A stretch of DNA of 41,770 nucleotides from an archaeon (GCA_030019325.1 JASEFB010000001.1:1-41770); one strand, 5' to 3'; counted from the first letter of the stretch, positions 15,209 to 30,409 are shown. Numbers and translations: made by a program. Notes: generated from the letters alone by a model not told the origin.

Positions 15209-15320
15209 TTTCTTGTTCCACGCTACGTTACATCATCTTATTCCGTACTTAAATAAGTAGCCAGAACTCAAACGAACACTGTTGTTTGTCGATGAGGATA
15301 AGAAAGAGGTGAAGAAGTGC

Positions 15321-15623
15321 TGTGTACGTCTATTTCAACTATCACGGGCTGAGCTTGCTCAAACCCGGTAGCGTGTTCTGCTTCATATCCTCCAACTCGT
15401 GGCTTGACGTCGGATTCGGGGCGAAACTACGGGAGTTTCTGCTCAAGAATTCTTAGATATATTGATAATAGAGAAGATTAAATCTGACAGAAGATCTCTT
15501 GATAAATTCCTAATGGGGGAAATTTTAGGTCTAACAGAAGAAGAACAGAAAGATTTCTATCGGGCAGTTTGTGAGCTGGTGAAGCAGCGGCTGGAGAAGG
15601 AGAGGAGTGTGAAGAAAAGCTAA
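15321..15623 (+). pseudogene. Relic of an N6-adenine DNA methylase (Eco57I/BREX PglX-like), two fragments
   Basis: Frame 1 reads LLKPGSVFCFISSNSWLDVGFGAKLREFLLKNS then stop (15345-15455), like the block after the NPPY region in type IIG methylases. A second fragment ends GLTEEEQKDFYRAV... (15471-15623). Coordinates are approximate. Confidence 0.35.
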
Positions 15624-15686
15624 ACGAGGGAGGAATATAAATATTATAGGTATAAATAGATATACAATTGGAATTGGAGGACTAAA

Positions 15687-15932
15687 ATGGTAAGGACAAA
15701 GAGATTGCATGCCGTCTTTGATGGTAAGGTACTAAGACCCGAGACGGCAGTTGATTTGGAACCAAACGCTCGCTACCTTGTAACCATCGAGCGTAAAGAA
15801 GAAAGAAATGAGCAGAGCCTTTGGGATGTGCTGAGCACGCTCTCTGGAACGGTCGAAGGACCAGAAGATTGGTCAGAAGAGCATGACCATTATGTATATG
15901 GCACCCCCAAGCGTGCAAAGGTGCGAAGATGA
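15687..15932 (+). CDS. vapB: DUF104/AF2212-like antitoxin
   Basis: RLHAVFDGKVLRPETAVDLEPNARYLVTIE is the typical DUF104 N-terminal beta motif. It lies directly upstream of a PIN gene. Confidence 0.65.
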   Translation: MVRTKRLHAVFDGKVLRPETAVDLEPNARYLVTIERKEERNEQSLWDVLSTLSGTVEGPEDWSEEHDHYVYGTPKRAKVRR

Positions 15933-15949
15933 TCTGATAGGATAATACC

Positions 15950-16369
15950 ATGAACGACTCTCGTTTTTTCCTCGACGCTGCTTATGTGCTGGCGTTACTT
16001 AATCCTCACGATTTCTATCACAAACAAGCCAACGCACTATTTCCTTCGGTGCGTGTTGCGCACGAGGTGTGGATAACAGAAGCGGTATTGGTTGAAATAG
16101 GCAATGCACTGGCACGTTCAAATCGGTTTACTGCTGTTGCATTCATCAATAGCTGTTACGTCACCCCTAATGTCACTGTAGTTTCAGTGGATACCGCATT
16201 GGTGCATCGTGCAATAGACTTTTACCAAAGTCGAGAGGATAAAGAGTGGGGATTGACTGACTGCATTTCCTTTATTGTGATGGAAGATCATGGCTTAACA
16301 GATGCTTTAACGACAGACGAGCATTTTGAACAAGCAGGCTTCAGAGCACTGTTACGGGAAGATAGGTAA
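15950..16369 (+). CDS. vapC: PIN-domain toxin (VapC)
   Basis: FFLDAAYVLALL (first Asp), ITEAVLVEIGN (Glu) and LTDCISFIVMEDHGLTDALTTDEHFEQAGF (distal Asp residues) are the PIN acidic residues in canonical order. Confidence 0.8.
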   Translation: MNDSRFFLDAAYVLALLNPHDFYHKQANALFPSVRVAHEVWITEAVLVEIGNALARSNRFTAVAFINSCYVTPNVTVVSVDTALVHRAIDFYQSREDKEWGLTDCISFIVMEDHGLTDALTTDEHFEQAGFRALLREDR

Positions 16370-16426
16370 GCTAAAAATGCTGTCTGAAAGTGCAAAACGT
16401 GAGAGCTTGAGATTCTCGTATTCCAT

Positions 16427-16575
16427 CCGTAGAACCGATCGGCGCGGAACCGGTAGTATTTCCTTTTGTTACCTTTACAGATGTCCACTTTGCTTCTAAT
16501 TTAACGATAAATGTCACGCTTTATAGAGCTAGCACTGTGGACGAAGATAATAAAAGAGATGATGAAATGGACTGA
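16427..16575. repeat. Direct repeat copy A (~150 bp), left flank of the MntA/HepT cassette
   Basis: CCGTAGAACCGATCGGCGCGGAACCGGTA.TATTTCCTTTTGTT.CCTTT.CAGATGTCCA...CACGCTTTATAGAG... recurs at 17488-17640. On the minus strand it reads ..DICKGNKRKYYRFRADRFYG, which looks like the 5' end of a gene. A partial third copy of the tail lies near 15288-15320. Confidence 0.8.
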
Positions 16576-16752
16576 CGATGGATATAATAAAACGAAATTA
16601 AACAATGCGAAATTTTTAAGAAGTGGTTTATGTTTTTGATGATATTGAGACAGAGAAGCTATAAAAAGGCTGGTGGGTAATAGTACCATGAAGGTGAAAG
16701 AACGAGAAGAGTAAAATAGAATCATCGGAAAAAGCAGCGGTGGTGAGTTATT

Positions 16753-17076
16753 ATGATTTTGAAGCGGGAAATGATGAAAATGAATGACGAACTTGAAAGG
16801 ATCATAAAAACGCTCGCAGCGCATAAGGAAGAGTTAAAGCAAAGATACAAGGTCAAAGAGATCGGTATCTTTGGCTCTGTGGTGAGGGGTGAGCAGAAGG
16901 GAACAAGCGATGTAGATATACTGGTGGAGTTTGAAAAACCAATTGGATTTTTCACGTTTTTAGAACTCGAAGAATATTTAAGCAATTTACTGGGGCTTAA
17001 GGTTGATCTTGTCTCGAAAAAGGCTTTGAAACCGAATATAGGGAGGTATATATTGCAGGAGGTAATACCGATATGA
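16753..17076 (+). CDS. mntA: MNT-type nucleotidyltransferase antitoxin (MntA)
   Basis: GIFGSVVRGEQKGTSDVDILVEF is the GS-x(9-10)-DxD Pol-beta NTase motif. It overlaps the DUF86 gene by 4 nt. The true start may be an internal Met. Confidence 0.85.
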   Translation: MILKREMMKMNDELERIIKTLAAHKEELKQRYKVKEIGIFGSVVRGEQKGTSDVDILVEFEKPIGFFTFLELEEYLSNLLGLKVDLVSKKALKPNIGRYILQEVIPI

Positions 17077-17423
17077 AAAGGGACTTCAAAGATTATATCC
17101 AGGATATTTTATCATCTCTAGAGGAGGTTGAGGATTTTACAGAGGGATTGGATTTTGAAGACTTCTTAAGAGACAGAAAAACAATAAATGCAGTTATAAG
17201 GAGCCTTGAAATTATTGGTGAAGCTGCAAAGAAGATACCAGAAGATTTAAGAAATGGACATCCTGAGATGCCATGGAAGCGTATGACGGGTATGAGGGAT
17301 AAACTTATCCATGAGTATCATGGAGTGGATCTTGAAATAGTCTGGACAGTCATTAAAGAAGAGCTGCCCCCGCTGAAACCCCTGATAGAAAAGGTATTAA
17401 AGGAAATAGAGGGGAAGGAATGA
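17073..17423 (+). CDS. hepT: DUF86/HEPN toxin (HepT)
   Basis: The MKRDFKDYIQDIL start, AVIRSLEIIGEAAKKIP and GMRDKLIHEY (the Rx4-6H HEPN motif) are typical of DUF86. Confidence 0.85.
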   Translation: MKRDFKDYIQDILSSLEEVEDFTEGLDFEDFLRDRKTINAVIRSLEIIGEAAKKIPEDLRNGHPEMPWKRMTGMRDKLIHEYHGVDLEIVWTVIKEELPPLKPLIEKVLKEIEGKE

Positions 17424-17487
17424 AGAGATGAGATCAGCCTTAAAGCCGAGGATAGGGAAGCATATTGTAAAGGGGGCTGTTTACACA

Positions 17488-17640
17488 CCGTAGAACCGAT
17501 CGGCGCGGAACCGGTACTATTTCCTTTTGTTGCCTTTGCAGATGTCCATTATCTCAATCTAACGATTAATTTCACGCTTTATAGAGGTACCACGGTCGAT
17601 GAGGATTAGAAAGAGATGGAGAAATGGGTGGAAGGAGGGA
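17488..17640. repeat. Direct repeat copy B, right flank of the MntA/HepT cassette
   Basis: It aligns by eye with 16427-16575 over ~150 bp, with scattered substitutions and small indels. Confidence 0.8.
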
Positions 17641-17882
17641 TATGATTGCGGAAGTTATATGTATATAATAAGGAAAAATAGCGTGAACAGGAAATTAAAG
17701 AGAAGGATGAGAGATTAATGTTTAAAGAGGGAATGGTCATTGAAGGACCCTTCTGGCCGGAGTCCTATCCTCTATCTAATAAATAATCTTGCGAATAATC
17801 TTAAGATTGAGGAGAAGATGGAGGGAGTGAGGTTCATAGTTCCTCGTGATGAATGGAAGCATAAAACTAAGGAGGTGATACC

Positions 17883-18107
17883 ATGGAATCAATAGAAGAG
17901 AAAATAAAGCAATTGTCTCCAGAATCACAGAAGGAGGTTATGGATTTCGTTGATTTCTTGCTTCAAAAAGGGGAGAAAAGACCGAAGAGAAAGCTTAAAT
18001 TGGATTGGGCTGGCGCCTTAAAAGAGTTCCGTGATGAATATACTTCCGTAGAGCTTCAGCACAAAATATCAAAGTGGAGGCTTGAGGATGAACTTAATAG
18101 ACACTAA
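17883..18107 (+). CDS. vapB: DUF2281-type antitoxin
   Basis: EEKIKQLSPESQKEVMDFVDFLLQK is the DUF2281 signature. It overlaps the PIN gene. Confidence 0.7.
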   Translation: MESIEEKIKQLSPESQKEVMDFVDFLLQKGEKRPKRKLKLDWAGALKEFRDEYTSVELQHKISKWRLEDELNRH

Positions 18108-18486
18108 TATAGTGCTTGAGCTATTATTAGAACGGGAGAAGGCAGAAAGTGTCCGTGACTTTTTTCAACGGATTCCAGCTTCTAAAATATTTGTAAGCGA
18201 CTTTTCTTTACATTCCATTGGAATTTTTCTATTGAAAATCGAAATGCCTGAGGTTCTAAGGGGATGTATTGAAGATCTCATCATTTTTGGAGGTGTTCAA
18301 GTTTCGAGTCTTAACTCACGGGAAATAATAGATGTCGTGGAGATTGCCAATCGTTTTCACCTTGACTTTGATGATGCTTATCAATATACAGTAGCAGAAA
18401 AGCATGATTTGCAAATAGTAAGTTTCGACACCGATTTTGACCGAACAGAGCGAGGTAGAAAGACACCTGATGAGGTTGTTCAATGA
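18088..18486 (+). CDS. vapC: PIN-domain toxin (VapC)
   Basis: MNLIDTNIVLELL (Asp), DFDDAYQYTVA and IVSFDTDFD give the PIN acidic residues. The likely start is the third Met of the track ORF. Confidence 0.8.
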   Translation: MNLIDTNIVLELLLEREKAESVRDFFQRIPASKIFVSDFSLHSIGIFLLKIEMPEVLRGCIEDLIIFGGVQVSSLNSREIIDVVEIANRFHLDFDDAYQYTVAEKHDLQIVSFDTDFDRTERGRKTPDEVVQ

Positions 18487-18818
18487 AGCGATTCATCGAA
18501 GTGAGCTTCCCGGTAAAAGAAGTGAGCGAGGAATCCGCACGCGAGAAGAACATCCGGCACGGCCATATCTCCACGCTCCATATCTGGTGGGCTCGCCGAC
18601 CGGTAGCGTCTTCGCGTGCTACTACGTATGCTGCATTAATCCCTGCTCCCGATCCTGACGACGCTGAGGAATGGGATAAGAAGCGGAAGGACATCATCGA
18701 GCTCTCGAAATGGGAGAACTCTCTAAATCCCACGCTTACCGAAAAAGTAGGGCAAGACATACCGCATTGTTACGGAAAAGGAAACGGAAGTTTACAAGGA
18801 AGCAGAACAGTACCTTGA
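18483..18818 (+). pseudogene. N-terminal ~95 codons of a DUF1156 anti-phage DNA methylase; the rest is missing
   Basis: MKRFIEVSFPVKEVSEESAREKNIRHGHISTLHIWWARRPVASSRA is the conserved DUF1156 N-terminus. Full-length proteins of this family are several hundred residues longer. The start overlaps the vapC stop (ATGA). Confidence 0.65.
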
Positions 18819-18965
18819 AGAGAAGAGCAAAACTTGTAGAGGAATGGGGCTTGAACCTGTGCCGGATGGACCTATGCCAGAAGGAAAAAGAACCTAGAGC
18901 AGAAAAGCCTTCGCAGCCAGTACATTGAGAGATCAAAATGACCATGAAGAGTGAGAGGAGAAAGA

Positions 18966-19259
18966 ATGAAGAATCTGGCAGATATAATGAAAACGCTCGC
19001 AGCGCATAAAGAGGAATTACAGCAGAGATACAAGGTCAAAGAGATCGATATCTTTGGCTCTGTGGTAAGAGGTGAGCAGAAGGGAACAAGCGATGTAGAT
19101 ATACTGGTGGAATTTGAAAACCCAATTGGATTTTTCACGTTTTTAGAACTTGAAGAATATTTAAGCAATTTACTGGGGCTTAAGGTTGATCTTGTCCCAA
19201 AAAAGGCTTTGAAACCGAATATAGGGAGGTATATATTGCAGGAGGTAATACCGATATGA
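18966..19259 (+). CDS. mntA: MntA nucleotidyltransferase, second near-identical copy
   Basis: It differs from 16753-17076 at only a few residues (e.g. IGIFG/IDIFG, EFEKP/EFENP). The ATG at 18966 is preceded by GAGAGGAG. Confidence 0.8.
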   Translation: MKNLADIMKTLAAHKEELQQRYKVKEIDIFGSVVRGEQKGTSDVDILVEFENPIGFFTFLELEEYLSNLLGLKVDLVPKKALKPNIGRYILQEVIPI

Positions 19260-19294
19260 AAAGGGACTTCAAAGAAATAGAGGGGAAGGAATGA
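19256..19294 (+). pseudogene. hepT: HepT relic: in-frame deletion leaving a 12-codon mini-ORF (MKRDFKEIEGKE)
   Basis: The first 19 nt and the last ~24 nt are identical to the ends of 17073-17423. The 312 nt between them are absent (351 vs 39 nt), with the junction in an AAAG(A/G) microhomology. Confidence 0.85.
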
Positions 19295-19332
19295 AGAGCT
19301 TGGAAGAGATAAAGAAGCACTTGAAGTACCGA

Positions 19333-19372
19333 ATCGTCAGATTATCGTCAGATTTGCGTCCAGATCGACGCA
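19333..19372. repeat. Two tandem 11-mers (ATCGTCAGATT) followed by the palindrome TGCGTC-CAGATC-GACGCA
   Basis: Read directly. The same 11-mer array recurs at 21519-21548. Confidence 0.8.
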
Positions 19373-19439
19373 TGATATATTTGTCATTGATAAACTCATC
19401 TTAACAAATGAATAGAATAGAAAGCGAGGCGTGTATAAA

Positions 19440-19865
19440 ATGCTGTCCAAGGAAGTAGTGGAGAAGATCAAGGAAGAGTTAACGGCATTTGTCGGCGCTG
19501 AGCTTGCGAGCATTGTCCTTTATGGCTCATATGCCGAGGGAAGAGAATCGAAATATTCCGATATCGATATCTTAGTTGTAGTGAGGCGGCATTTTAAAGA
19601 TTGGCGTGCTCGCAGAGAGGGTGAAATAGCGCTGAGAAAAATTTTATATCGTTCTGTCGGTCAGGTCTCACCACGAATTATAGGAGCCGACGTGATTCTC
19701 ACGACCCTGAAAAACTTCAACCCGCTGTTACTGAATATCCTCAAGCACGGTATCCCACTGCTCGATGACGGCACGTTTGCAAAGGTTAAAGAAGAATTCC
19801 AACGCATGGTAGAGGCGAAGATAATAGAACCGAGAGAAGATTATTGGATGGTCGCTATTACATGA
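19440..19865 (+). CDS. Nucleotidyltransferase-domain protein (antitoxin of an NTase/HEPN pair)
   Basis: IVLYGSYAEGRESKYSDIDILVVV is the Pol-beta NTase motif. The stop overlaps the HEPN start (ATGA at 19862). Confidence 0.8.
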   Translation: MLSKEVVEKIKEELTAFVGAELASIVLYGSYAEGRESKYSDIDILVVVRRHFKDWRARREGEIALRKILYRSVGQVSPRIIGADVILTTLKNFNPLLLNILKHGIPLLDDGTFAKVKEEFQRMVEAKIIEPREDYWMVAIT

Positions 19866-20317
19866 ACAATCGCAGTAAAGTCTTCGAGATTGCAGAAGCG
19901 TATCTTTTGGAAGCCTTTACTGACTATGATGCAGTACCCATACTCATCGCGCATGAAAAATATAATCTCGCTGTATATCACGCGCAACAGGCGGTTGAAA
20001 AACTGCTTAAAGCGTGCTTAGCCGCCGAGGGTGCTATTGGCATATACAAACATGAAGTGTTTCGCCATTTCAAAGAGGTGTTCAGTACCAAAATCGATGC
20101 ACAAACGATGAATAGCATAGAAGAGAATGTGATTGAACTCGAAGAAGAATGGGCGCTGTCACGTTATCCCGACTGGGAAGTTGAACCTATATGGATCCCG
20201 TCCAGGGGTTATACTAAGCAGAACGCAGAAGAGAGGAGGAACAACATGAACATTGTCTTCGAGATCCTTACGAAATTTTTGAGAGATAACTACAAGTTGA
20301 AAAAAAAGAAGGAGTAA
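19862..20317 (+). CDS. HEPN-domain protein
   Basis: AVYHAQQAVEKLLKACLAAEG and WALSRYPD are typical of the PF05168 HEPN family. It is the partner of the upstream NTase. Confidence 0.8.
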   Translation: MNNRSKVFEIAEAYLLEAFTDYDAVPILIAHEKYNLAVYHAQQAVEKLLKACLAAEGAIGIYKHEVFRHFKEVFSTKIDAQTMNSIEENVIELEEEWALSRYPDWEVEPIWIPSRGYTKQNAEERRNNMNIVFEILTKFLRDNYKLKKKKE

Positions 20318-20321
20318 GCAC

Positions 20322-20471
20322 ATGCCAACCCATGATATAATTGATAATCGGGAAGGAATCCTGTTAGACCACGTAAAAGGCCTGCTCAGAGTCTCAGAAA
20401 GTGCGAAGTTCGCCGTCGGCTATCCCTTTACCTGCGGATTAAAAACTATTGAGAAGGCGAGGAGCGTGTAA
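20322..20471 (+). pseudogene. 5' stub (49 codons) of a PLD-SNF2 helicase gene, copy 1
   Basis: MPTHDIIDNREGILLDHVKGLLRVSESAKFAVGYPFTCGL... aligns with the start of 23234-24574. Its stop TAA is 1 nt before the Fic ATG. Confidence 0.8.
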
Positions 20472-20472
20472 C

Positions 20473-21510
20473 ATGTATCGTCCAAACTTTACCATCACGA
20501 AGAAAATCCTCAATCACATAGCAGAGATTTCTGCCTCTCGTGAGGTCATACTTAACGCACCGCTGCTCCCTAAATGGGAAGCCAAATTGAGAAAAGAAGC
20601 GATTCTAAAGATGGCGCACCATTCCACGAGTATCGAAGGGAACAGACTCACAATGGACGAGGTTAATAGGCTGCTCCGGGGCGAAGATATAGCGGCATGG
20701 GAGAAGGACAAAAAAGAAGTTCTGGGATACGTGAAGGTTCTGGAATACATAGACAAGCTGGGAGAAGAAGGTGTTGCCTCGATTACTGAAGATATAATCC
20801 TCGAAATACACCGGCTTAATACCCAAGGGATTCTCCCTGATTCTGAAGCCGGGCACTATCGGAACGTGGAGGTTGCTGTGGTTAACGGTCTGGGAAGAGT
20901 TACGTTTCAACCCCCGGAAGCAGCGCAAGTTCCTTCATTAATGAATGGCTTTATTGCATGGCTAAACGGTAAGGAAGCAAAAGAATCATATCCCGCTTTA
21001 GTAAGCGGGATTGCGCACTACGAATTCGTTAGGATACATCCCTTTGTAGATGGCAACGGAAGAACTACACGGGCACTGGCAACCTTAATCCTCTATCTGA
21101 GGGGTTTTGACACGAAACGCTTTTTTGCCTTGGACGATTATTATAACGAAGAACGCAGCAGATATTACGCAGCTCTGCAAACCGTTGACCCACTAACAAT
21201 AAATCTCACACAATGGCTGGGGTACTTTACAGAAGGCGTCGCAGTAAGTATGGGCAGGGTTAAACAAGCCATCTTAGACCTGAGTGTGGATCGGCGCCTC
21301 AAAGAGCAACGAGGACAAATATACCTGAACGATAGACAGATGAAGATTCTCAAATATCTTCAGACCAATCCAAGAATTACCATCAGTGAGATACAAAAAA
21401 TGTTCGATATTAGTAGAGACACAGCAAACCGTGATCTCAAACCACTCTTAGAAAATACCTTAGTGAAAAGGAGGGGAAAAGGGAGGGCGATATACTATGA
21501 ACTGGCTTAA
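20473..21510 (+). CDS. Fic/DOC-family protein with a C-terminal winged helix
   Basis: HPFVDGNGRTTRAL (21037-21072 plus the next two codons) is the Fic motif HxFx(D/E)GNGRxxR. The C-terminus ...ISEIQKMFDISRDTANRDLKPLLENTLVKRRGKGRAIYYELA is a wHTH. The ATG at 20473 is preferred over the TTG at 20449. Confidence 0.85.
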   Translation: MYRPNFTITKKILNHIAEISASREVILNAPLLPKWEAKLRKEAILKMAHHSTSIEGNRLTMDEVNRLLRGEDIAAWEKDKKEVLGYVKVLEYIDKLGEEGVASITEDIILEIHRLNTQGILPDSEAGHYRNVEVAVVNGLGRVTFQPPEAAQVPSLMNGFIAWLNGKEAKESYPALVSGIAHYEFVRIHPFVDGNGRTTRALATLILYLRGFDTKRFFALDDYYNEERSRYYAALQTVDPLTINLTQWLGYFTEGVAVSMGRVKQAILDLSVDRRLKEQRGQIYLNDRQMKILKYLQTNPRITISEIQKMFDISRDTANRDLKPLLENTLVKRRGKGRAIYYELA

Positions 21511-21518
21511 AATAAGAA

Positions 21519-21548
21519 ATCGTCAGATTATCGTCAGATTATCGTCAG
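21519..21548. repeat. 2.7 tandem copies of the 11-mer ATCGTCAGATT, starting 8 nt after the Fic stop
   Basis: Read directly. It is followed by AATGACAAA, the inverse of TTTGTCATT at ~19377. Confidence 0.8.
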
Positions 21549-21560
21549 GTGAATGACAAA

Positions 21561-21725
21561 ATGCCAATACATGACATCATAGATAACCAGAAAAGCATCC
21601 TGTTGGATCACGTAAAAAGTTTGTTAAGAGACTCGGATAGTGCGAAGTTCGCCGTTGGCTATTTCTTTACCAGTGGCCTGGCACCTATTGACAAGGTGAG
21701 GAGTACAAAAAAGAGGAATACTTGA
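21561..21725 (+). pseudogene. 5' stub (54 codons) of a PLD-SNF2 helicase gene, copy 2
   Basis: MPIHDIIDNQKSILLDHVKSLLRDSDSAKFAVGYFFTSGLAPIDKV... aligns with the start of 23234-24574. Its stop is 13 nt before the next ATG. Confidence 0.8.
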
Positions 21726-21738
21726 GGGATTAACTAAC

Positions 21739-23079
21739 ATGCCACTACCAAAGGAATCCCACACAACAGAGCTGAAAAAGTCATTAGCGCAGTTAGACGA
21801 TTCTTTGAAGTCCGTCTGCGCCTTTCTCAACCATAAAGGCGGGACCGTTTATTTCGGCGTGGCCAATGACGGCGAGATTCGTGGTCTGGATGTCTCGGAC
21901 AGAACATTGAGGAAAATATCGCAGCAGATTCATGCAAGGATAAAGCCTGAAATCACTCCTGAACTAAGAGAAATAAAGGAAAAGGGCAAATCAATAATAG
22001 AACTGAAAATCTCGGAAGGCAATAACAAGCCTTACTTCCTTAATGGCGTGGCCTACAAGCGAATAGGAACCGAAAACAGGATTATTCCACCGGATGAATT
22101 GAGGCGAATTATTCTGGAGCAGCGACAAACGAAATGGGATGAGGAGACCTGTGAAGGCGCGACACTAACGGATATTGACGCGGAGAAAGTACAATGGTTC
22201 TTAAGAAAAGCCACGTTTGAACGACGGCTGGAAATAGACCCAGCAATATCAGTAAAAGAAGCGTTGGAACGGATTGGCCTGCTGAAGGAGAATAAACTCA
22301 CCAATGCCGCTATTTTGTTATTCGGTAAAAAGCCGCAACGGTTCTTCATGCAGTCAGAGGTCAGATGTGCCAGATTTAAAGGCACAGAGCCTCTGGAGTT
22401 CATTGATATGAAAGTCTTTGCAGGAACTGTTATTGACCAGCGGGAAGATGCAGTGGAATTCGTCAAAGAGCATATTAAATTGCATGCCAAGATCATTGAA
22501 ACTGAAAGAGTTGAGAGATGGGAATATCCCCTTGAAGCACTACGAGAAGCACTTACCAATGCGCTCTGTCATAGAGATTATGAACTATCAAGCAATGTTC
22601 AAGTTAGAATATTCGATGACAGAATTGAGGTCTGGGGATGCGGGCCGCTACCACAACCATTAACCGTAGAAGATTTAAGAACGAAACACGATTCTATTTT
22701 AAGAAATCCTCTAATCGGAGAATGCTTCTTTTTGATTAAATTTATTGAGCAATGGGGAACTGGTACGAATCGTATTATCCGTGAATGTTTGAACTATGAC
22801 TTGCCAGAACCTCTGTTCGAAGAAGCTGCTGGCAATCTCGTTGTCACCTTTCGGAAGAGTAAATTTACAGAAGAATATCTCAAACAACTCAGTTTAAATG
22901 AGCGGCAGATGAACGCCCTCAACCACCTTAAAGCGAATGAAAAGATCACGAGGAAAGAATACTCGTCTCTGTTTAATTGCTCAACGCGAACGGCGTTCAA
23001 TGATCTTCAGGAGATGATGGATAAAAGGATAGTAAAAAGGAAAGGAAAGGGGAAATATACCTATTATGAGATGGCTTAG
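21739..23079 (+). CDS. AlbA_2 (Schlafen-type) plus HATPase_c_4 (RecG-C-like) domain protein with a C-terminal wHTH
   Basis: ESHTTELKKSL...FLNHKGGTVYFGVANDGEIRGL is the AlbA_2/AAA_4 N-terminus. EALREALTNALCHRDY...IRIFDDRIEVWGCG is the HATPase_c_4 block. The C-terminal KGKGKYTYYEMA wHTH resembles the Fic tail. Confidence 0.8.
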   Translation: MPLPKESHTTELKKSLAQLDDSLKSVCAFLNHKGGTVYFGVANDGEIRGLDVSDRTLRKISQQIHARIKPEITPELREIKEKGKSIIELKISEGNNKPYFLNGVAYKRIGTENRIIPPDELRRIILEQRQTKWDEETCEGATLTDIDAEKVQWFLRKATFERRLEIDPAISVKEALERIGLLKENKLTNAAILLFGKKPQRFFMQSEVRCARFKGTEPLEFIDMKVFAGTVIDQREDAVEFVKEHIKLHAKIIETERVERWEYPLEALREALTNALCHRDYELSSNVQVRIFDDRIEVWGCGPLPQPLTVEDLRTKHDSILRNPLIGECFFLIKFIEQWGTGTNRIIRECLNYDLPEPLFEEAAGNLVVTFRKSKFTEEYLKQLSLNERQMNALNHLKANEKITRKEYSSLFNCSTRTAFNDLQEMMDKRIVKRKGKGKYTYYEMA

Positions 23080-23086
23080 CGTGCAA

Positions 23087-23118
23087 CTACCGTGCACCTA
23101 CCGTGCAATATTTGCACG
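23087..23118. repeat. Two 11-bp-period units (CTACCGTGCA) merging into the palindrome CGTGCAA-TAT-TTGCACG
   Basis: Read directly. It begins 8 nt after the stop of 21739-23079. Confidence 0.75.
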
Positions 23119-23178
23119 CATGCACGTGCTGAAGGTGTAAAAATGCCCATACCAAAGGAGAGAGGTGGTCGCAACCAC

Positions 23179-23247
23179 ATGAATAACCGTAGCAAAGAGA
23201 ACTGCAAGGTGGAGAAGAAGGAGGACTGCTCGAATGTCAACCCATGA
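23179..23247 (+). pseudogene. HEPN relic: mini-ORF retaining only the first 6 and last ~10 codons of a 19862-20317-type gene
   Basis: ATGAATAACCGTAGCAAAG matches the start of the HEPN gene (ATGAACAATCGCAGTAAAG). AGAACTGCAAGGTGGAGAAGAAGGAGGA matches its 3' end (ATAACTACAAGTTGAAAAAAAAGAAGGAGTA). Just upstream, 23143-23165 mimics the start of the AlbA_2 gene (ATGCCCATACCAAAGGAG). Confidence 0.6.
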
Positions 23248-24574
23248 TATAATAGATAACCGTGAAGAAGTCCTGTTAGAGCACGTAAGAAGCTTGCTCC
23301 ACGATTCTGTTAGTGCGAAGTTTGCCGTCGGCTATTTCTTCACCAGCGGGTTAGCACCGCTCATGGACGAAGTACAAAACCTGAATGAACTCAAGATTCT
23401 CATCGGCAATATCTCCAGCAAGAGAACGATCGAGCAGTTAGCAGAAGCGCACATGAATTTAGTCACCGCAAAGCAGGAATTTAACAAGCAATTATTCCTG
23501 AACCCCTCGAAACGAAAACTCGCAGTATCAGAAACGAAAGAGGGAATAAAAACCAGCTTGAGTTTAATTGACCAGACCGACGACAATGAGCAGATGATTC
23601 GAGTACTAAGAGAGCTGATCGAAAAGAACAAAATTAAAATCAGGATTTACACCTCGGGCAGATTGCATTCCAAAGCGTATATCTTCGATTACCCCGAAGG
23701 GCATCATGACAAAGGCAATGCTATAATTGGGTCCAGCAATTTGAGTTTAGGCGGCTTATTAGACAACACCGAATTAAACGCGCTCATTCCTGGTATCGGT
23801 AATCACGAAAAATTAACCGAGTGGTTCAATAGTTTATGGGATTCGAAAAACTCTGCAGAGTTCAATGCTGAATTGATGGAGGAGCTAAAGAACTCGTGGG
23901 CATTAAACGAAGTCCGACCGTATGATGTTTATATCAAAACACTTTATCATCTTTTGAAGGATCGATTAGAGATCGAAGCTGCGGAAGAATTGTTGTGGGA
24001 AGCAACAATGCCCCCGTTAACCACGTTTCAAATCGTAGCGGTGAAACAAGCACTTCAAATACTGAATGATTACGGTGGTGTCTTCGTCGCTGATGTTGTT
24101 GGAACCGGCAAGACATACATCGGAACTGCTCTTTTGAAACACTTACAGATGGTTCACGGGGACAGACCGCTCATAATATGCCCAAAATCATTAGAAGATA
24201 CCTGGAAGGACTTTTGTAGAGAGTACGAAATACAAACAGAATTCCTGACCTTTGGAAAGATAAGCCAAGGAACCATTGATTTGATCAATGACCCGATATA
24301 TCGAAATTTAAACACCGTGTTAATTGATGAAAGTCACAATTTCAGATACCCAAACACAAACCGATATAAGAATTTGCAGCCCTATCTCTACGGGAAAAAG
24401 ACTATTCTCATAACGGCAACGCCCAGAAACAATACCCACGAGGACATATATCATCAAATAAAATTATTCCATCACGACGAGGAAACAACAATTCCCATTG
24501 ACCCCTCGAATCTCAAACGATTTTTCAAGGAGGTTGAGAATGGAAATAAACGGATTCAAGAATTATTACGATAG
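23234..24574 (+). CDS. PLD-nuclease / SNF2-family helicase fusion, 3'-truncated (no helicase C-terminal domain)
   Basis: PLD motif HSKAYIFD...GSSNLS (23666-23740). Helicase motif I GTGKT (24101-24115), II DESH (24326-24337), III TATP. The ORF stops right after motif III (..IQELLR*) and no HELICc-like sequence follows. Probably non-functional. Confidence 0.75.
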   Translation: MSTHDIIDNREEVLLEHVRSLLHDSVSAKFAVGYFFTSGLAPLMDEVQNLNELKILIGNISSKRTIEQLAEAHMNLVTAKQEFNKQLFLNPSKRKLAVSETKEGIKTSLSLIDQTDDNEQMIRVLRELIEKNKIKIRIYTSGRLHSKAYIFDYPEGHHDKGNAIIGSSNLSLGGLLDNTELNALIPGIGNHEKLTEWFNSLWDSKNSAEFNAELMEELKNSWALNEVRPYDVYIKTLYHLLKDRLEIEAAEELLWEATMPPLTTFQIVAVKQALQILNDYGGVFVADVVGTGKTYIGTALLKHLQMVHGDRPLIICPKSLEDTWKDFCREYEIQTEFLTFGKISQGTIDLINDPIYRNLNTVLIDESHNFRYPNTNRYKNLQPYLYGKKTILITATPRNNTHEDIYHQIKLFHHDEETTIPIDPSNLKRFFKEVENGNKRIQELLR

Positions 24575-24620
24575 GGTGCATTACGCATTTCTTACAGGTT
24601 AGATATGAACGGGGAAAAAG

Positions 24621-24650
24621 TTTATATATGCCCTGTTACAATGTAACAAT
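24621..24650 (+). promoter_or_regulatory. TATA box (TTTATATA) plus a perfect palindromic operator GTTAC-AAT-GTAAC just before the RHH gene
   Basis: TTTATATA lies at 24621-24628, about 25-30 nt upstream of the ATG at 24653, which suggests a leaderless or short-leader mRNA. The palindrome at 24635-24647 lies between them. A second palindrome, GTTAC-ATC-GTAAC, is at 24895-24907. Confidence 0.5.
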
Positions 24651-24652
24651 CA

Positions 24653-24859
24653 ATGAAAAGGGATAAAGTAATACTAACAAGGGTTGATGAGTATATAGCA
24701 GAGCGCGTAGAATACATAACGAATAACTCAAAAGACATTGAACTGACAAAGTCCGAAGTCGTGCGAATAATATTGCATGCCTTTTTCAAATCGCAAAAGG
24801 GTAAGGACTTTGAGAAAGTGCGTGAATTAGCTATTAAAATGAGAAAGGGGCTCTTGTAG
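24653..24859 (+). CDS. Ribbon-helix-helix (CopG-like) DNA-binding protein
   Basis: 68 aa. KVILTRVDEYIAERVEYI...LTKSEVVRIILHAFF fits a beta-strand, helix, helix pattern. Confidence 0.65.
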   Translation: MKRDKVILTRVDEYIAERVEYITNNSKDIELTKSEVVRIILHAFFKSQKGKDFEKVRELAIKMRKGLL

Positions 24860-24963
24860 GGTGTCTCAAACAAAAGTGGGAGTTATCACAAGGCGTTACA
24901 TCGTAACAATGGATTAATGATACTGAAAACCACCTCGAATTTTAGAAATCATAGTTGTAAGAA

Positions 24964-25587
24964 TCAGGTAATGCACCCGTTTTCACTAATACTCCAAATA
25001 GGACTAGGATATTCACGGGAAATGCCAGAACAGCGATTATATGATGCAGTATTTCTTGAGATTGTATTGTGACTTGAACTGAACATAATGCCGTTGTAGT
25101 TATAATGACTATCATCATAACCACATCTGTTATCAACTATGGTAGAGTAATTTGCATCGCTCCCAAGGTGGACTCCTGCCTTAGAAATTCCAGTGCCACC
25201 AAAAATGGTGAGTCCTTTAATGACGGCATAATCCACAGTTACCTCAAACACATGGTCATTCGGATTTGCCGCCTGAACGGTTGTTACCTCAGCCCCGTTT
25301 TCTGATTGAATCGTTAAATATGGCTTATTTATATCCACATTTTCGGTATAGGTGCCATCCCTCACAATTATCGTATCCCCTGCAGAAGCATTATCCACCG
25401 CCCACTGGATCTTTGCGTAATCATCAGGCACGTAATAAGTATTTGAAGATAAAGGAACACCTGAAATAGAACCATTCTCAGAATCTTTATCAACTGCGAG
25501 AGAAGGTATTGCGCAGCTTATGAGCATCAGCAATGCACATGCAAGTGCTAATATCTTCAACTTTTTCTTAAAATAAAAGCTTCTCAT
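24964..25587 (-). CDS. Secreted right-handed beta-helix (NosD/PbH1-like) protein, probably 3'-truncated
   Basis: Signal peptide (KKLKILALACALLMLISCAIPSLA), then YYVPDDYAKIQWAVDNASAGDTIIVRDGTYTENV.. and NTISRNTAS repeats typical of NosD-like beta-helix proteins. At 207 aa it is short for the family. Confidence 0.65.
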   Translation of the reverse strand: MRSFYFKKKLKILALACALLMLISCAIPSLAVDKDSENGSISGVPLSSNTYYVPDDYAKIQWAVDNASAGDTIIVRDGTYTENVDINKPYLTIQSENGAEVTTVQAANPNDHVFEVTVDYAVIKGLTIFGGTGISKAGVHLGSDANYSTIVDNRCGYDDSHYNYNGIMFSSSHNTISRNTASYNRCSGISREYPSPIWSISENGCIT

Positions 25588-25590
25588 TGC

Positions 25591-26094
25591 TCATTTCACC
25601 TGCTTCAATTTCTCAATTAATTTCTCCGTATTCTTGCCGATGACTTCTACTGCTTTTTGAGTCATTTCATCCTCGTAAAAGTTTCGATGTAAAGCATTCG
25701 CTTCGCCAAATAACGTTATGAGTTCCTCATCTCCTGTCTCCCTCGATAGCCTATCTATAAACTGCCAAAGAGCGCCATGTTTCTCCAACTTTAACCCCCT
25801 CTTAGCTGCTACCATCTTAACTGCTAAAGCAGTAGCACCCCAAAGCTTTTCAGACGCCTGAACGAGGTCTCCTTTATTCAAAACTTCCTTCGCATCTCTA
25901 AGGTATTTCTCACTTAGGGCTTGGTAGTGTTCTGCAAGATCTTCCGGATCTAAATCCTCATTTAGACTTTTCCGCAAAAGCTCAACCCCTAATTCCTCAG
26001 GCAAATAGCCTCTCTCTTCAGCTCTCGCCCTTAGTTTCTCCCCAAGCTTTTTTGGCAAAATAATATAGGTAACTCCCATAGTCGATTCATGCAC
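25591..26094 (-). CDS. PaREP1-family (HEPN-superfamily) protein with an N-terminal RHH-like segment
   Basis: DLVQASEKLWGATALAVKMVAAKRGLKLEKHGALWQFIDRL...EANALHRNFYED matches the PaREP1 (PF05942) blocks. The N-terminus VTYIILPKKLGEKLRARAEERG is RHH-like. Confidence 0.75.
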   Translation of the reverse strand: MHESTMGVTYIILPKKLGEKLRARAEERGYLPEELGVELLRKSLNEDLDPEDLAEHYQALSEKYLRDAKEVLNKGDLVQASEKLWGATALAVKMVAAKRGLKLEKHGALWQFIDRLSRETGDEELITLFGEANALHRNFYEDEMTQKAVEVIGKNTEKLIEKLKQVK

Positions 26095-27377: not shown

Positions 27378-27553
27378 AGCTCTTCTGCCTTTATGAAGTC
27401 AGAGAGATCGTGATGGCCCACAGCTCCCCTCGCTTCCCTCACCATCTTCTCCTCCTCGCTCGTTAGCAGAGAATCCTCCACAAGTTCCGCTAAGACTCCT
27501 TTGATATATTCCACATCCTGCCTCAAAATCCTTATCTCTTCTTCCAGAGCCAT
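27374..27553 (-). CDS. Antitoxin of the RelE module (59 aa)
   Basis: My translation from the ATG at 27553 is MALEEEIRILRQDVEYIKGVLAELVEDSLLTSEEEKMVREARGAVGHHDLSDFIKAEEL. Its stop overlaps the toxin ATG (ATGA). It is in a different frame from track ORF 27399-27677. Confidence 0.6.
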   Translation of the reverse strand: MALEEEIRILRQDVEYIKGVLAELVEDSLLTSEEEKMVREARGAVGHHDLSDFIKAEEL

Positions 27554-27629
27554 GTTTGTTTGTTTGTTTGTTTGTTTGTTTGTTTGTTTGTTTGTTTGTT
27601 TGTTTGTTTGTTTGTTTGTTTGTTTGTTT
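27554..27629. repeat. Perfect tetranucleotide microsatellite, (GTTT)19 on + and (AAAC)19 on -
   Basis: Counted directly: 76 nt with no interruptions. It abuts the antitoxin ATG (27553) on one side and AAAAGGAG (minus strand) on the other. Confidence 0.95.
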
Positions 27630-28369: not shown

Positions 28370-28439
28370 CTTTTCCCCTCCTTACTTTTCTCTATATCTC
28401 TTTTATACAACATTATATCATCCTATTATAAATACATAA

Positions 28440-28521
28440 CGATTATTGTACTGCTAACGGAAGCATTATCCACCGCCCATTGGATCTTCGCATAGTCATC
28501 AGGCACGTAAATATCAGCAGC
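28440..28521 (-). pseudogene. Fragment of the beta-helix gene (mature N-terminus), copy 4
   Basis: ..AADIYVPDDYAKIQWAVDNASVSSTIIV.. and the underlying DNA align with 25350-25430 of gene 24964-25587. Confidence 0.6.
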
Positions 28522-28573
28522 TGAAATGGTTCCAACGAAAGAATAAAAAATAAAAACTGATGGTGCGATATTC

Positions 28574-30409
28574 TTACCGTACCATATTTGCTGCTTCCTG
28601 AACGGCATCCAGCTTTCCAATGATCGTCGCATAATCGCCATCCAGAAGCTTTGTCTCACCATGTGCAATTATTGATTTACCCTCCCTTCGAACCATTACG
28701 ATCAAGCTATCCTCTGGCAGCGAGATCTCTTTAATAGCCTTTCCCACCACGCGCTTATTCGAGACCTTGACTTCAAGTATATCCCCCTCGTCACTAACCT
28801 CGCACATCGTAAACAAATCGTGGTGTCCCACCATACCGTCGAGCATGAGCGCGGTGGCAATGACGGGGCTGATTGAGCGGATATCGAGATCCATAAACGC
28901 CTGAAGGTTTTCCGGGTCATTAACCCGAGCCACGAGTTTTTCTCCCGTGAATCCGAATTTTGTCTTGGCAATCTGGCATACCAAAAGATTGGTGTTATCC
29001 TGGTCCGTGGTTACGACGAGGTATTTGGCATGTTCGATTCCTGCTTTTTTGAGATTTGCTACATCTTCCGCATTACCATGAATTGCTCGTATTCCCATTT
29101 TTAGCGCTTTTTTACACTTCTCTTCATTATTATCGATTATCACAACGTTCTCTCCACGCTTCAAAAACCGTTCAGCTAGATCCCGTCCAACTCCACCTCC
29201 GCCAACAATTAATATTTCCATAGGTATTACTCTGGTTCTTTTTGCTATAAATTTTGCTGAAATCCCTGTTGATAGTACGGTAATTACGATGGTAATAAAC
29301 ATCAATCCAAGAAGACTGGCTGGTTCAGAAATAAAACCTAAATCCTTCAGTCTTATGGAGAAATAGACTGCCATGGAAGCGGGAACAACACCTCTCGGTC
29401 CTATTGCGGAAATGAATAGTTTTTCACCACCCTTCAGGTCTGATCTCAGCGTGGATACAAATACTGCCAGCGGTCTTATGAGAACCATCAATAATACCAC
29501 TAAAAGGAGCGCATTCAACCCAAGTGCTCGAATATACGCAAAATCTATGAATGCAGATAACAGAATAAAAATAACTGAGAGTAAAATTATCGAGATATCT
29601 TCCTTAAAATGCTTTATGGCATCTTTGTGGGGGATGTCAGACGAGCCAATAAATATCCCGAAGAGTGCCATTGCCAGTACACCCGATTGAGTTCCGATAT
29701 TCTCAGCGATTACAAATGCAGCCAAAAGAATTGAGATGGTAAATAATCGAGCGTACTGTTCAGTAAGTAATGGGATTTTGCATAAAATCAAGATAAGCGT
29801 AATCCCGGCCAAAGCACCGAAAAAAGCGCCGTTTGATAGCCGGATTAACAGGAACTGAGCAGCTTTGATTCCGGTCAGTGATGCCACGATCCACTCAAAG
29901 ACGAGTGCAGCAAGTATCACACTTGCGCCGTCATTTAATACCGCCTCTGCCTGGAGAACGCCGGCAACTTTAGTATTAACTCGTATCTGCCTGATTATCG
30001 GAGTGATCACGGCAGGACCGGTTGCTGAAACAACCGCCCCAAACAGTAAGGCAATATTAAAAGGAATATTAAGCAGAAGGTAAGCCGCTACCGCAGTAAG
30101 TACCGCGGTCATAATGACCCCAATCGTAACCAGATTCAATATACTGTGCTGAATCTTCCGCAGTTGTCTGATGTCAATGTCCAGACCGCCGTCAAAGACG
30201 ATTATGGCAACGGCAAAACCTACAAGCAATTCGAGACCACTTCCAAATCTGCTCGGCTCGATAAGTCCGGTAACCTCGGGGCCTAAAATAATCCCAGCAG
30301 CTAACAAGAAAACAATGCTCGGGATTTTAAGTATCCGTCCGAGCATGTGTGCTAAGATCCCGATGATCATTACACCCACAAGAGATGTCAGCAAGTATAT
30401 AGTGCTCAT
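28574..30409 (-). CDS. Cation:proton antiporter fused to RCK_N (TrkA-N) and RCK_C domains
   Basis: 611 aa. The first ~390 residues are polytopic Na+/H+-exchanger-like. They are followed by ILIVGGGGVGRDLAERFLKRGENVVIIDNN (a Rossmann GxGxxG) and a TrkA-C-like tail (GKAIKEISLPEDSLIVMVRREGKSIIAHGETKLLDGD). Confidence 0.85.
   Translation of the reverse strand: MSTIYLLTSLVGVMIIGILAHMLGRILKIPSIVFLLAAGIILGPEVTGLIEPSRFGSGLELLVGFAVAIIVFDGGLDIDIRQLRKIQHSILNLVTIGVIMTAVLTAVAAYLLLNIPFNIALLFGAVVSATGPAVITPIIRQIRVNTKVAGVLQAEAVLNDGASVILAALVFEWIVASLTGIKAAQFLLIRLSNGAFFGALAGITLILILCKIPLLTEQYARLFTISILLAAFVIAENIGTQSGVLAMALFGIFIGSSDIPHKDAIKHFKEDISIILLSVIFILLSAFIDFAYIRALGLNALLLVVLLMVLIRPLAVFVSTLRSDLKGGEKLFISAIGPRGVVPASMAVYFSIRLKDLGFISEPASLLGLMFITIVITVLSTGISAKFIAKRTRVIPMEILIVGGGGVGRDLAERFLKRGENVVIIDNNEEKCKKALKMGIRAIHGNAEDVANLKKAGIEHAKYLVVTTDQDNTNLLVCQIAKTKFGFTGEKLVARVNDPENLQAFMDLDIRSISPVIATALMLDGMVGHHDLFTMCEVSDEGDILEVKVSNKRVVGKAIKEISLPEDSLIVMVRREGKSIIAHGETKLLDGDYATIIGKLDAVQEAANMVR

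Follow-up and report, generated by a model that had tools for sequence, protein, structure and literature searches.

Accessory defence and toxin-antitoxin (TA) genes inside restriction-modification (R-M) and BREX operons are well documented; the route by which they enter is not. HEPN-MNT (MNT, minimal nucleotidyltransferase), Schlafen-HisK-wHTH (wHTH, winged helix-turn-helix), Fic/Doc and PIN 'backup effectors' have been described as embedded in BREX and BREX-related (BR) loci and in R-M operons (PMC12839542; PMC3710099), and the examined passages of both papers catalogue the cargo content and mention neither stubs nor a mechanism of insertion. For the methane-oxidising archaeal clade ANME-1, hypervariable hotspots have been reported in which R-M and TA genes are over-represented among the structural variants, with partial deletions and insertions of TA operons; the paper contains none of the words 'helicase', 'truncated' and 'pseudogene', and its consulted parts describe neither gene-start stubs nor shared junctions (PMC13385816). 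The closest known analogue of the locus described here would be the C-terminal displacement (orphan) arrays at Rhs, CdiA and T6SS VgrG effector-immunity loci, in which units are acquired serially beside a conserved anchor and displaced units keep a short homologous piece of that anchor (Kirchberger 2017, PMC5361080); the relevant passages propose that homology-facilitated illegitimate recombination and ordinary homologous recombination bring in alleles from other strains (PMC5361080; Jackson 2009 cited therein). The present work concerns a whole metagenomic contig of 41,770 nucleotides (nt) from an archaeon (GCA_030019325.1 JASEFB010000001.1, below called the window), in which the start of an HKD(PLD)-SNF2 helicase-nuclease gene occurs three times on the plus strand, at 20322, 21561 and 23234. 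The first two copies are stubs followed by a Fic gene and a Schlafen/AlbA_2 gene, respectively, and only the third continues as helicase.

As in the displacement arrays, a fragment of the anchor gene derived from a different allele bounds each unit. The window array is, however, a mirror image of those of Rhs, CdiA and VgrG in that the 5' end of the anchor gene is repeated upstream, whereas there it is the 3' ends that are repeated downstream. Moreover, no variable toxin domain is attached to the repeated piece, which instead accompanies complete independent genes (Fic, Schlafen/AlbA_2, TA pairs), and the anchor is the helicase-nuclease of an R-M-like system in an archaeal host. With integrons and integrative elements the array shares promoterless genes stacked behind one set of expression signals and a duplicated target-gene end flanking the insert; different from integrons, no integrase, attI/attC or att core was found here, the breakpoints vary, and the units of 1.2-1.7 kb carry no mobility genes. 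The kinds of cargo found between the methylase and helicase core genes are like the backup effectors of BREX and BR loci, yet in the loci studied here neither DUF499 nor DUF3780 was detected, and the helicase has an Eco57I-like methylase as its partner. The hotspots of ANME-1 belong to the same clade as our loci. We consider it rather probable that the array, which occupies a variable cargo slot between a methyltransferase (MTase) gene and the helicase gene, owes its origin first to illegitimate joins and then to homologous recombination in the repeated 5' segment. The stubs have the look of recombination scars that also serve as homology arms, and not of products of a site-specific enzyme.

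A previous inspection of the window from the sequence alone, to which we refer as the sequence-only reading, had held that the three helicase starts are homologous and diverged too far for a recent duplication, that both stubs break together, and that Fic and AlbA_2 genes with similar winged-helix ends lie directly behind them. All of this was borne out, with the break refined to codon ~43-45. Stub 1 (20322..20471, plus strand) carries helicase codons 1 to ~44 up to 20453 and an MNT-leader-like segment at 20454-20472; its open reading frame (ORF) of 49 aa ends with a TAA (20469-20471) 1 nt ahead of the ATG of a Fic-wHTH gene (cargo 1, 20473..21510, plus strand; Pfam Fic, 1e-20, and HTH; PADLOC SoFic, 3.9e-59). 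Cargo 1 is probably a SoFic protein, as judged by a model match over residues 30-342 of 345 and an intact HPFVDGNGR motif, and it shares 90% amino acid identity with the Fic gene behind the orthologous stub of the related contig L018. Stub 2 (21561..21725, plus strand) likewise holds helicase codons 1 to ~44, up to 21692, followed by what is left of the MNT leader and of the first MNT codons (21693-21710). Its ORF comprises 54 aa, and 13 nt past its stop starts a Schlafen/AlbA_2-HATPase_c_4-wHTH gene (cargo 2, 21739..23079, plus strand; Pfam SLFN_AlbA_2, HATPase_c_4 and wHTH) with 84-91% identical orthologues in L104-L107. That the stubs are helicase-derived to about codon 44 emerged from comparison with 116 N-termini of the family, which also revealed the changes F35P and S38C at conserved residues of stub 1; tblastn relates the stubs to helicase 5' ends of related contigs with E = 1e-14 to 1e-21. 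The three copies make up a gapless repeat family (D2) with 64-77% identity over 158 nt, the two stubs being 77% identical over their first 120 nt and the other two pairs similar to the same order. Pooled ratios of nonsynonymous to synonymous differences (pN/pS) are 0.24-0.27 for pairs containing a stub and 0.15 for full-length pairs. As the differences are mostly synonymous, most of the divergence arose while the sequences still belonged to functional genes in different lineages, and constraint was relaxed somewhat later on. The C-terminal wHTH domains of the Fic and AlbA_2 proteins share 44% identity over 64 aa (E = 1e-12). This similarity is one of protein domains only, no nucleotide-level homology being reported between the 3' ends of the two genes, and a right-hand joint at these ends was ruled out for that reason.

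The two stubs share more than their point of breakage. Helicase homology stops at ATTGAG (20448-20453) in stub 1 and at the corresponding ATTGAC (21687-21692) in stub 2, and the ~18 nt that follow are the same in both, AAGG(C/T)GAGGAG.., and are not helicase sequence. They match the ribosome-binding leader, or Shine-Dalgarno region, of an MNT gene, which is present in the window as AAAGCGAGGCGTGTATAAA followed by ATG (19421..19439, plus strand; identified by alignment with the stub ends and with 8055-8076 of the related contig L005). This antitoxin-type gene (19431..19865, plus strand; Pfam NTP_transf_2/Polbeta; PADLOC PDC-S09), whose true start is likely the ATG at 19440, overlaps by 4 nt an adjacent toxin-type HEPN gene (19862..20317, plus strand; Pfam HEPN, 9e-17). 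The arrangement is that of a putative MNT-HEPN type II/VII TA pair, and the pair (19431-20317) sits 5' of stub 1. The junction, ..ATTGA joined to AAAGCAAGGAGCGT.., lies behind stubs twice in the window and again in L005, L018 and L105-L107, contigs of six or more other metagenome samples having it in all, and we conclude from this recurrence of the same sequence that both window stubs descend from a single joining event. In L005 the stub ends with ..CCTATTGAA and continues AAAGCAAGGAGCGTATAAAATGCTGTCC.. straight into a 41-codon MNT fragment; from 8055, the first base past ATTGAA, this contig aligns by blastn with the MNT region of the window from 19421 onward. Where the MNT ATG would be expected, stub 1 and L018 have the ATG of Fic, and in stub 2 just the MNT leader and the first few MNT bases are left. 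Homology of stub 2 to copy 3 beyond the joint (GTACAAAA..) was also considered and rejected, as identity falls to ~28% after 9 nt and the first MNT codons fit better. The HEPN 3' end, in turn, precedes both stub 1 and copy 3. Together with the MNT leader at the ends of the stubs this supports the proposal of the sequence-only reading that a nucleotidyltransferase-HEPN-helicase junction was itself among the duplicated matter. Its conclusion that a common breakpoint points to site-specific rearrangement did not hold: the shared junction is identity by descent, other breakpoints occur elsewhere, and no recombinase was found nearby. Carriage of the array by viruses was rejected as well. The junction 19-mer has one match in IMG/VR, which lacks a stub and is attributed to chance, and no helicase relatives were found in viral contigs.

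How the units have behaved since can be seen in related contigs. The nearest relatives of copy 3 come from metagenome-assembled genomes of Methanophagales (ANME-1) and from marine-sediment and hydrothermal metagenomes (P0004, L021, L002-L018), and Fic or AlbA_2 genes behind a helicase start are found in L018, in L105-L107 and in the bacterial L043. Orthologous stub-Fic (L018) and stub-AlbA_2 (L105-L107, from three further samples) units are 84-85% identical to those of the window, the latter at 84% over 1.6 kb of nucleotide sequence and behind a left flank that differs from the window's. Window positions 20322-21685, from the start of stub 1 through Fic and the adjoining iterons into stub 2, correspond to L018 1942-3308 at 85% identity. 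Beyond the equivalent of stub 2, L018 runs on as helicase where the window has AlbA_2, and the 1673-nt unit of junction, AlbA_2 gene and scars is therefore an indel bounded by a direct repeat. Over nt 1-120 the stubs form no clade, each being nearest to some full-length allele: the L008 stub is 97% identical to the neighbouring full copy (100% over nt 61-120), the L018 stub 96% to the full copy of L007, the L005 stub 91% to that of L018, and the window stubs 82-84% to that of L010. The upstream flanks have been exchanged in a similar way, as three flank types serve stubs and full copies alike. ATCGTCAGATT iterons precede stub 2, the L005 and L008 stubs and the full copies of L006, L007 and L018; stub 1, copy 3 and the full copy of L010 have the HEPN 3' end in front of them; and a 'CAGCCGAACTGAAA' flank precedes the L018 and L105-L107 stubs and the full copy of L008, so that the order of flanks is reciprocal between L008 and L018. 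Further ANME-1 contigs are broken at other places. L100/L101 contain two orphan stubs of ~53 and ~36 codons, the second of which overlaps the start of cbiD (ATGA), the helicase gene of L103 has lost codons ~38 to ~790 by an internal deletion at a CCAGCG microhomology, and the L008 stub is joined at an ATTGAA microhomology to codon 31 of HEPN.

The ATCGTCAGATT sequence is the native helicase leader, as it lies upstream of full helicase genes in L006, L007 and L018. In the window it occurs as 2.7 copies immediately 5' of stub 2 (21519..21548, plus strand) and as two copies at 19333..19354 (plus strand), as found by TRF and by a DNA motif search with 0 occurrences expected by chance. A second repeat, 2.6 copies of CGTGCAACTAC (23080-23108, TRF), lies with a hairpin 3' of the AlbA_2 gene (23080..23140, plus strand; DNA fold -13.5 kcal/mol, z = -2.2) and is kept in L010, L104 and L105. 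The two are different tandem repeats with the same 11-nt period, that is, one helical turn, and each is found directly downstream of a cargo gene that encodes a wHTH and directly upstream of a helicase start. Repeats of these types recur at L005 1995-2024 and 7894-7912, L006 1495, L007 3643, L018 3145 and L103 234, and ATCGTCAGATT is also found 5' of the methylase gene in L005. By their sequence they look like operator iterons of the system. In L018 (1790-1940; also L008 ~2215-2256 and L105 ~225-283) an insert of ~150 nt, which contains inverted repeats (AGACACAGATTAACGCAGAT .. ATCTGCGTAAATCCGTGTCT), stands between the iterons and the helicase start and so creates the third flank type; its structure suggests that it is possibly a miniature mobile element. 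A chain consisting of the 41-codon MNT fragment and a ~57-codon fragment of a second Fic-like gene is common to L005 8068-8370, L007 2182-2503, L018 1381-1760 and L105 1884-2110 and has different neighbours in each; the Fic-like fragment is joined to the last codons of the gene in L018 and is duplicated in L105. The islands are assembled from a small set of shared composite pieces.

Between the AlbA_2 gene and copy 3 lies a block of scars (23143..23229, plus strand), consisting of collinear local alignments that score at or above the best of 300 shuffles. In order, it comprises the start of an AlbA_2-start-like hexapeptide ORF (23143-23160), the last ~15 nt of the MNT 3' end (23164-23178), the first 6 codons of HEPN (23179-23197) and the last ~9 codons of HEPN leading into the helicase start (23198-23229), which substantiates the scars of AlbA_2 start and HEPN ends noticed in the sequence-only reading. 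The entire block is found at 79% identity 5' of an intact 1075-aa helicase gene in L010, and in part in L104; given its presence before the intact L010 gene, the scar block must be old. The gene that precedes it in L010 differs from that in the window and has the final ~13 codons of a wHTH gene joined to it. In L104 (9567-12333 of a 65-kb contig), a 91%-identical AlbA_2 gene stands directly after a full MNT gene, in the usual position of HEPN, and is followed by the scar block and then by a C-terminal helicase remnant. To judge from this gene order, MNT may pair with a Schlafen-like protein as it does with HEPN.

Similar stubs are found outside the archaea. We scanned 80 of the ~600 or more GTDB loci in the helicase family; in four bacterial genomes among them an intact helicase gene is preceded by 5' stubs in the same orientation, the cargo differing from genome to genome: a stub of 19 codons with Phd/ParE in a member of the Syntrophaceae (L036), of 22 codons with wHTH-MNT and HEPN-like genes in one of the Syntrophales (L040), of ~28-32 and ~44 codons with Schlafen/AlbA_2-wHTH and with AAA_15/21 and HNH genes in one of the Anaerolineales (L043), and of 14 codons with a 290-aa gene in one of the Poribacteria (L062). 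With the resident 5' end these stubs share 85-90% identity, and they include no more than 7-19 nt of upstream sequence. When whole helicase proteins were compared with their own flanks, all close fragments (at least 70% identity) lay upstream on the same strand and started at residue 1-2, except in L045, where the fragment is a C-terminal piece. Stubs accompany 5 of 64 helicase genes, as compared to 2 of the 326 other genes of at least 300 aa at these loci (Fisher p = 0.0017). The control count conservatively includes L063, whose 'stub' was rejected as a tandem paralogue with a common N-terminal domain. 'Fragments' in L046 and L048 were also discarded, as they are repeats within an over-extended ORF and distant paralogues. 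In L073 (3553-7932) the last 29 codons of an Eco57I-type methylase gene are repeated 1.2 kb downstream, 5' of the helicase gene, which amounts to a mirror-image 3' stub, and in L035 (13559-17764) a 42-codon 5' stub of uvrA, 95% identical, lies 1.1 kb upstream of uvrA with an opposite-strand gene between them.

How, then, could such an array have been built? The array lies in the variable slot of a two-gene R-M-like module of Methanophagales (ANME-1), between the Eco57I-like MTase (~1200 aa) and the helicase-nuclease (~1070 aa), where defence and TA genes accumulate. A single illegitimate join would have connected helicase codon ~45 to the MNT leader, either by head-to-tail duplication of an MNT-HEPN-helicase 5' segment, which would yield this joint, or by homology-facilitated illegitimate recombination in which the helicase body served as anchor for incoming DNA. 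The resulting direct repeat of ~135 nt of the helicase 5' end could then have served as substrate for homologous recombination, by which units of stub, junction and cargo were inserted and lost, moved between alleles and lineages, and stacked serially, with the stub as the left and the helicase 5' end as the right homology arm. Behind the junction the cargo has been swapped to Fic or AlbA_2 at or near the MNT start codon, and internal deletions in toxin genes have left start and stop scars; in the proposed scheme these changes would follow the joining. That only 5' stubs survive may be due to selection, by which only those products would persist in which the helicase frame is unbroken and the next gene has functional start signals, and the same selection would explain why several stub ORFs end at the start codon of the following gene. 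This explanation builds on what the sequences show: a junction common to several contigs, flanks exchanged between stubs and full copies, divergence like that among alleles, an indel with the repeat at its borders, repeated occurrence with differing breakpoints, stubs that are directional and enriched, and two microhomology joints.

Several points weigh against it. Recombination is inferred from static assemblies, many of them short, and a repeat of 135 nt with 78-88% identity would be expected to recombine inefficiently. The small size of the stubs (14-55 codons) is not predicted by random joints, and the selection argument is an addition made to account for it. Additional illegitimate events have to be assumed for Fic or AlbA_2 to have taken the place of MNT precisely from the start codon, the regularity of junctions at gene starts and ends is unexplained by the scheme, and the AlbA_2-start-like scar at 23143 has no assigned origin in it. 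Finally, the uvrA 5' stub among the control genes means that the phenomenon may in part be generic.

The site-specific alternative, to which the sequence-only reading pointed, would take the form of a dedicated recombinase that cuts the helicase gene at a fixed site near codon 45-55 and inserts circular cassettes together with a replacement 5' end, in the manner of integrons or integrative elements. It would account for the break at the same nucleotide in the window stubs, L005, L018 and L105-L107, for 11-nt iterons at the cassette ends, and for a junction that stays constant while the cargo differs. Yet the constant part is the whole of the MNT-leader-derived junction, which speaks for shared ancestry and not for a recognition core, and breaks occur at other places, at codons ~36, ~38 and ~53 in ANME-1 (L100, L103) and ~14, ~19, ~22, ~28-32 and ~44 in bacteria. 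The iterons, moreover, are the native leader of the helicase gene, and in L005 also of the MTase gene, and thus not specific to cassette ends. No integrase or transposase gene was found beside the array among the ORFs scanned with Pfam, an Rfam search of positions 15000-26000 stayed empty at E <= 0.1, shuffled sequences fold as well as the Fic cassette end (z = -0.12), and no inverted-repeat or attC-like structure common to the cassette ends was found. A dedicated site-specific system is therefore largely excluded, and we regard it as very improbable. An even smaller chance is to be given to an artefact of mis-joined or expanded repeats in the metagenome contig, a concern already raised in the sequence-only reading. 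Independent Logan contigs do break inside stub 2 (~21640) and near the truncation of the helicase gene (24600), but these contigs match the window without a difference, L019 over about 19952-21640 and L001 over about 21642-24600, and so reproduce all junctions except the interior of stub 2. The copies differ by 17-36%, which excludes collapsed or expanded reads of one sequence, and orthologous arrangements are found in other samples (L018, L105-L107, L005 and L008), so that an assembly artefact is hardly credible.

Two further explanations leave the site-specific enzyme aside. In a purely local history, tandem duplication of an MNT-HEPN-helicase 5' segment would have been followed by long divergence in place and by gene replacement, with no exchange between lineages. 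Head-to-tail duplication gives exactly the founding junction of helicase codon ~45 to MNT leader, and the HEPN 3' end does stand 5' of both stub 1 and copy 3. Such a history is nevertheless unlikely, because the copies are as distant from one another as are orthologues of different contigs, each being nearest to an allele elsewhere, because their mostly synonymous divergence is unexpected for dead fragments, and because stub-cargo units recur with different flanks in other samples and stubs and full copies have swapped flanks. The stubs might, on the other hand, have been retained as short leader ORFs, either providing helicase start signals and translational coupling to the cargo or encoding peptides that modulate the helicase. 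Most stubs are still open reading frames with a pN/pS below 1, and in several cases stop and start are adjacent or overlap, as in stub 1 and L018 (TAA-C-ATG, Fic), L043 (TAATG, AlbA_2) and L100 (ATGA, cbiD); in L036 the stub is even fused in frame to Phd. The L005 stub, however, is frameshifted, stub A of L100 has an early stop, stub 1 is altered at invariant residues, and in other cases the spacing from stub to cargo start is 13-330 nt, while recent derivation from working alleles explains a low pN/pS equally well. We think it improbable that the stubs were retained for such a role; as a selective filter, it would be compatible with origin by illegitimate joining and homologous recombination.

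The window contains only the remains of the core system to which the array belongs. Copy 3 (23234..24574, plus strand; Pfam PLDc_2 and SNF2-rel_dom), taken for a PLD-SNF2 helicase gene in the sequence-only reading, is homologous to such genes but is not intact. Its ORF of 446 codons shares 89% amino acid identity with the 1070-aa protein of L005 over residues 1-444 only, homology to the 1070-aa orthologues ends at ~24567-24573, Helicase_C is lacking, and the C-terminal part of the gene was found nowhere else in the window. Past the truncation a 68-aa ORF (24653-24859) is bracketed by a 38-nt imperfect inverted repeat (24559-24596 / 24956-24993), and the end of the independent contig L001 at 24600 suggests a variant or repeat near this point. 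On the other side, the left anchor of the cargo slot is represented by remnants of the ~1200-aa Eco57I-like N6-methyltransferase gene (15290..15631, plus strand), which match residues 717-766 and 1148-1191 of the L005 MTase by blastn and tblastn. They are followed by an antitoxin and PIN (VapC-like) pair (15641..16377, plus strand; Pfam PIN) that is 84% identical in nucleotide sequence to L005 8679-9407 and L009 795-1517, where it lies directly 5' of the helicase gene. With the MTase reduced to remnants and the helicase truncated, the core system in the window is dead, and the self-sufficient cargo genes outlast it.

In full-length relatives the system consists of a ~1200-aa Eco57I/type IIG-like N6-methyltransferase and a ~1070-1110-aa HKD-SNF2 protein, and the slot between them holds SIR2, DUF3800, HEPN-MNT, VapBC, Fic and Schlafen-type genes. 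The full-length helicase of L005 matches the PADLOC model 'HKD+Snf2' C3a139 (5e-75, residues 5-999). In the passages on Type-2 BR systems, the HKD-SNF2 helicase is given as their effector type and a standalone DUF3780 gene as present in 98% of loci (PMC12839542). One feature of Type-2 BR, an N-terminal HKD endonuclease fused to a Swi2/Snf2 helicase, is found here as well, the window gene being truncated at ~444. No DUF499 AAA+ ATPase was found in the window, and within 10 kb on either side of the helicase gene in L005, L036, L040, L043 and L013 there is no ORF of >700 aa except those of MTase and helicase; the larger neighbours tested are SMC_N, ATPase_2, Fer4, AFOR and similar proteins. DUF3780 was not found among the proteins scanned, which covered the small ORFs in part, and in L005, L036, L013 and L073 the partner of the helicase is an Eco57I/type IIG-like MTase. 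As neither DUF499 nor DUF3780 was found, the loci are not assigned to Type-2 BR, membership in which was rejected for the lack of DUF499 in the flanks. DISARM was rejected too, as the match to DrmD is weaker (3e-38, C-terminal half only) than that to 'HKD+Snf2' and the scanned flanks contain no DrmA or DrmB (DUF1998). The AlbA_2 gene fits the architecture of the backup effectors, with SLFN_AlbA_2, HATPase_c_4 and a C-terminal wHTH, and the same architecture is found behind the L043 stub.

The array forms part of a larger TA and defence island bounded by genes for glucose-6-phosphate isomerase (14474-15208, minus strand) and a cation transporter (28574-30409, minus strand). An N-terminal fragment of a DUF1156-type DNA methyltransferase (18483..18818, plus strand; Pfam DUF1156, 2.5e-24) comprises 111 aa, is unrelated to the Eco57I-like MTase and lies 3 kb beyond the remnants of the latter; at least two R-M-like systems have decayed within the island. 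A second type of MNT gene is present in two copies at 95% identity (16753-17423 and 18951-19298). The first pair of this type is flanked by direct repeats of ~125 nt (16427-16554 and 17488-17612), 1061 nt apart, and in the second the HEPN partner is gone except for a 39-nt 3' scar, which repeats the pattern of keeping the ends and deleting the toxin seen in the HEPN scar at 23179. Further features include a perfect (TGTT)19 microsatellite at 27553-27629, amid small TA-like ORFs, and genes for a 207-aa secreted-looking protein and a truncated second copy of it (24964-25587 and 28426-28668, minus strand) with the common motif VPDDYAKIQWAVDNAS, a further partial duplication inside the island.

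The loci retain the joints, with a repeated gene-start fragment at the border of each unit, a junction inherited across samples and swapped flanks, and the pattern recurs independently in several phyla. We put forward, as a tentative possibility, that the first ~45 codons of the helicase gene and its leader constitute a portable homology arm, by which defence and TA cassettes without a recombinase of their own could be inserted, deleted, reordered and passed between strains by homologous recombination at any copy of the helicase gene, with the stub ORF supplying start signals for the cargo, and that such 5'-end displacement might be a general route in archaea and bacteria for R-M-like systems. 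If the homology-arm reading is true, cargo slots would grow and reshuffle without a dedicated mobility enzyme, and a codirectional 5' stub of the anchor gene would be a signature by which acquisitions of defence genes can be found, dated and ordered. For ANME-1, which are not culturable, it would also provide a concrete mechanism for the hypervariable hotspots that have been reported.

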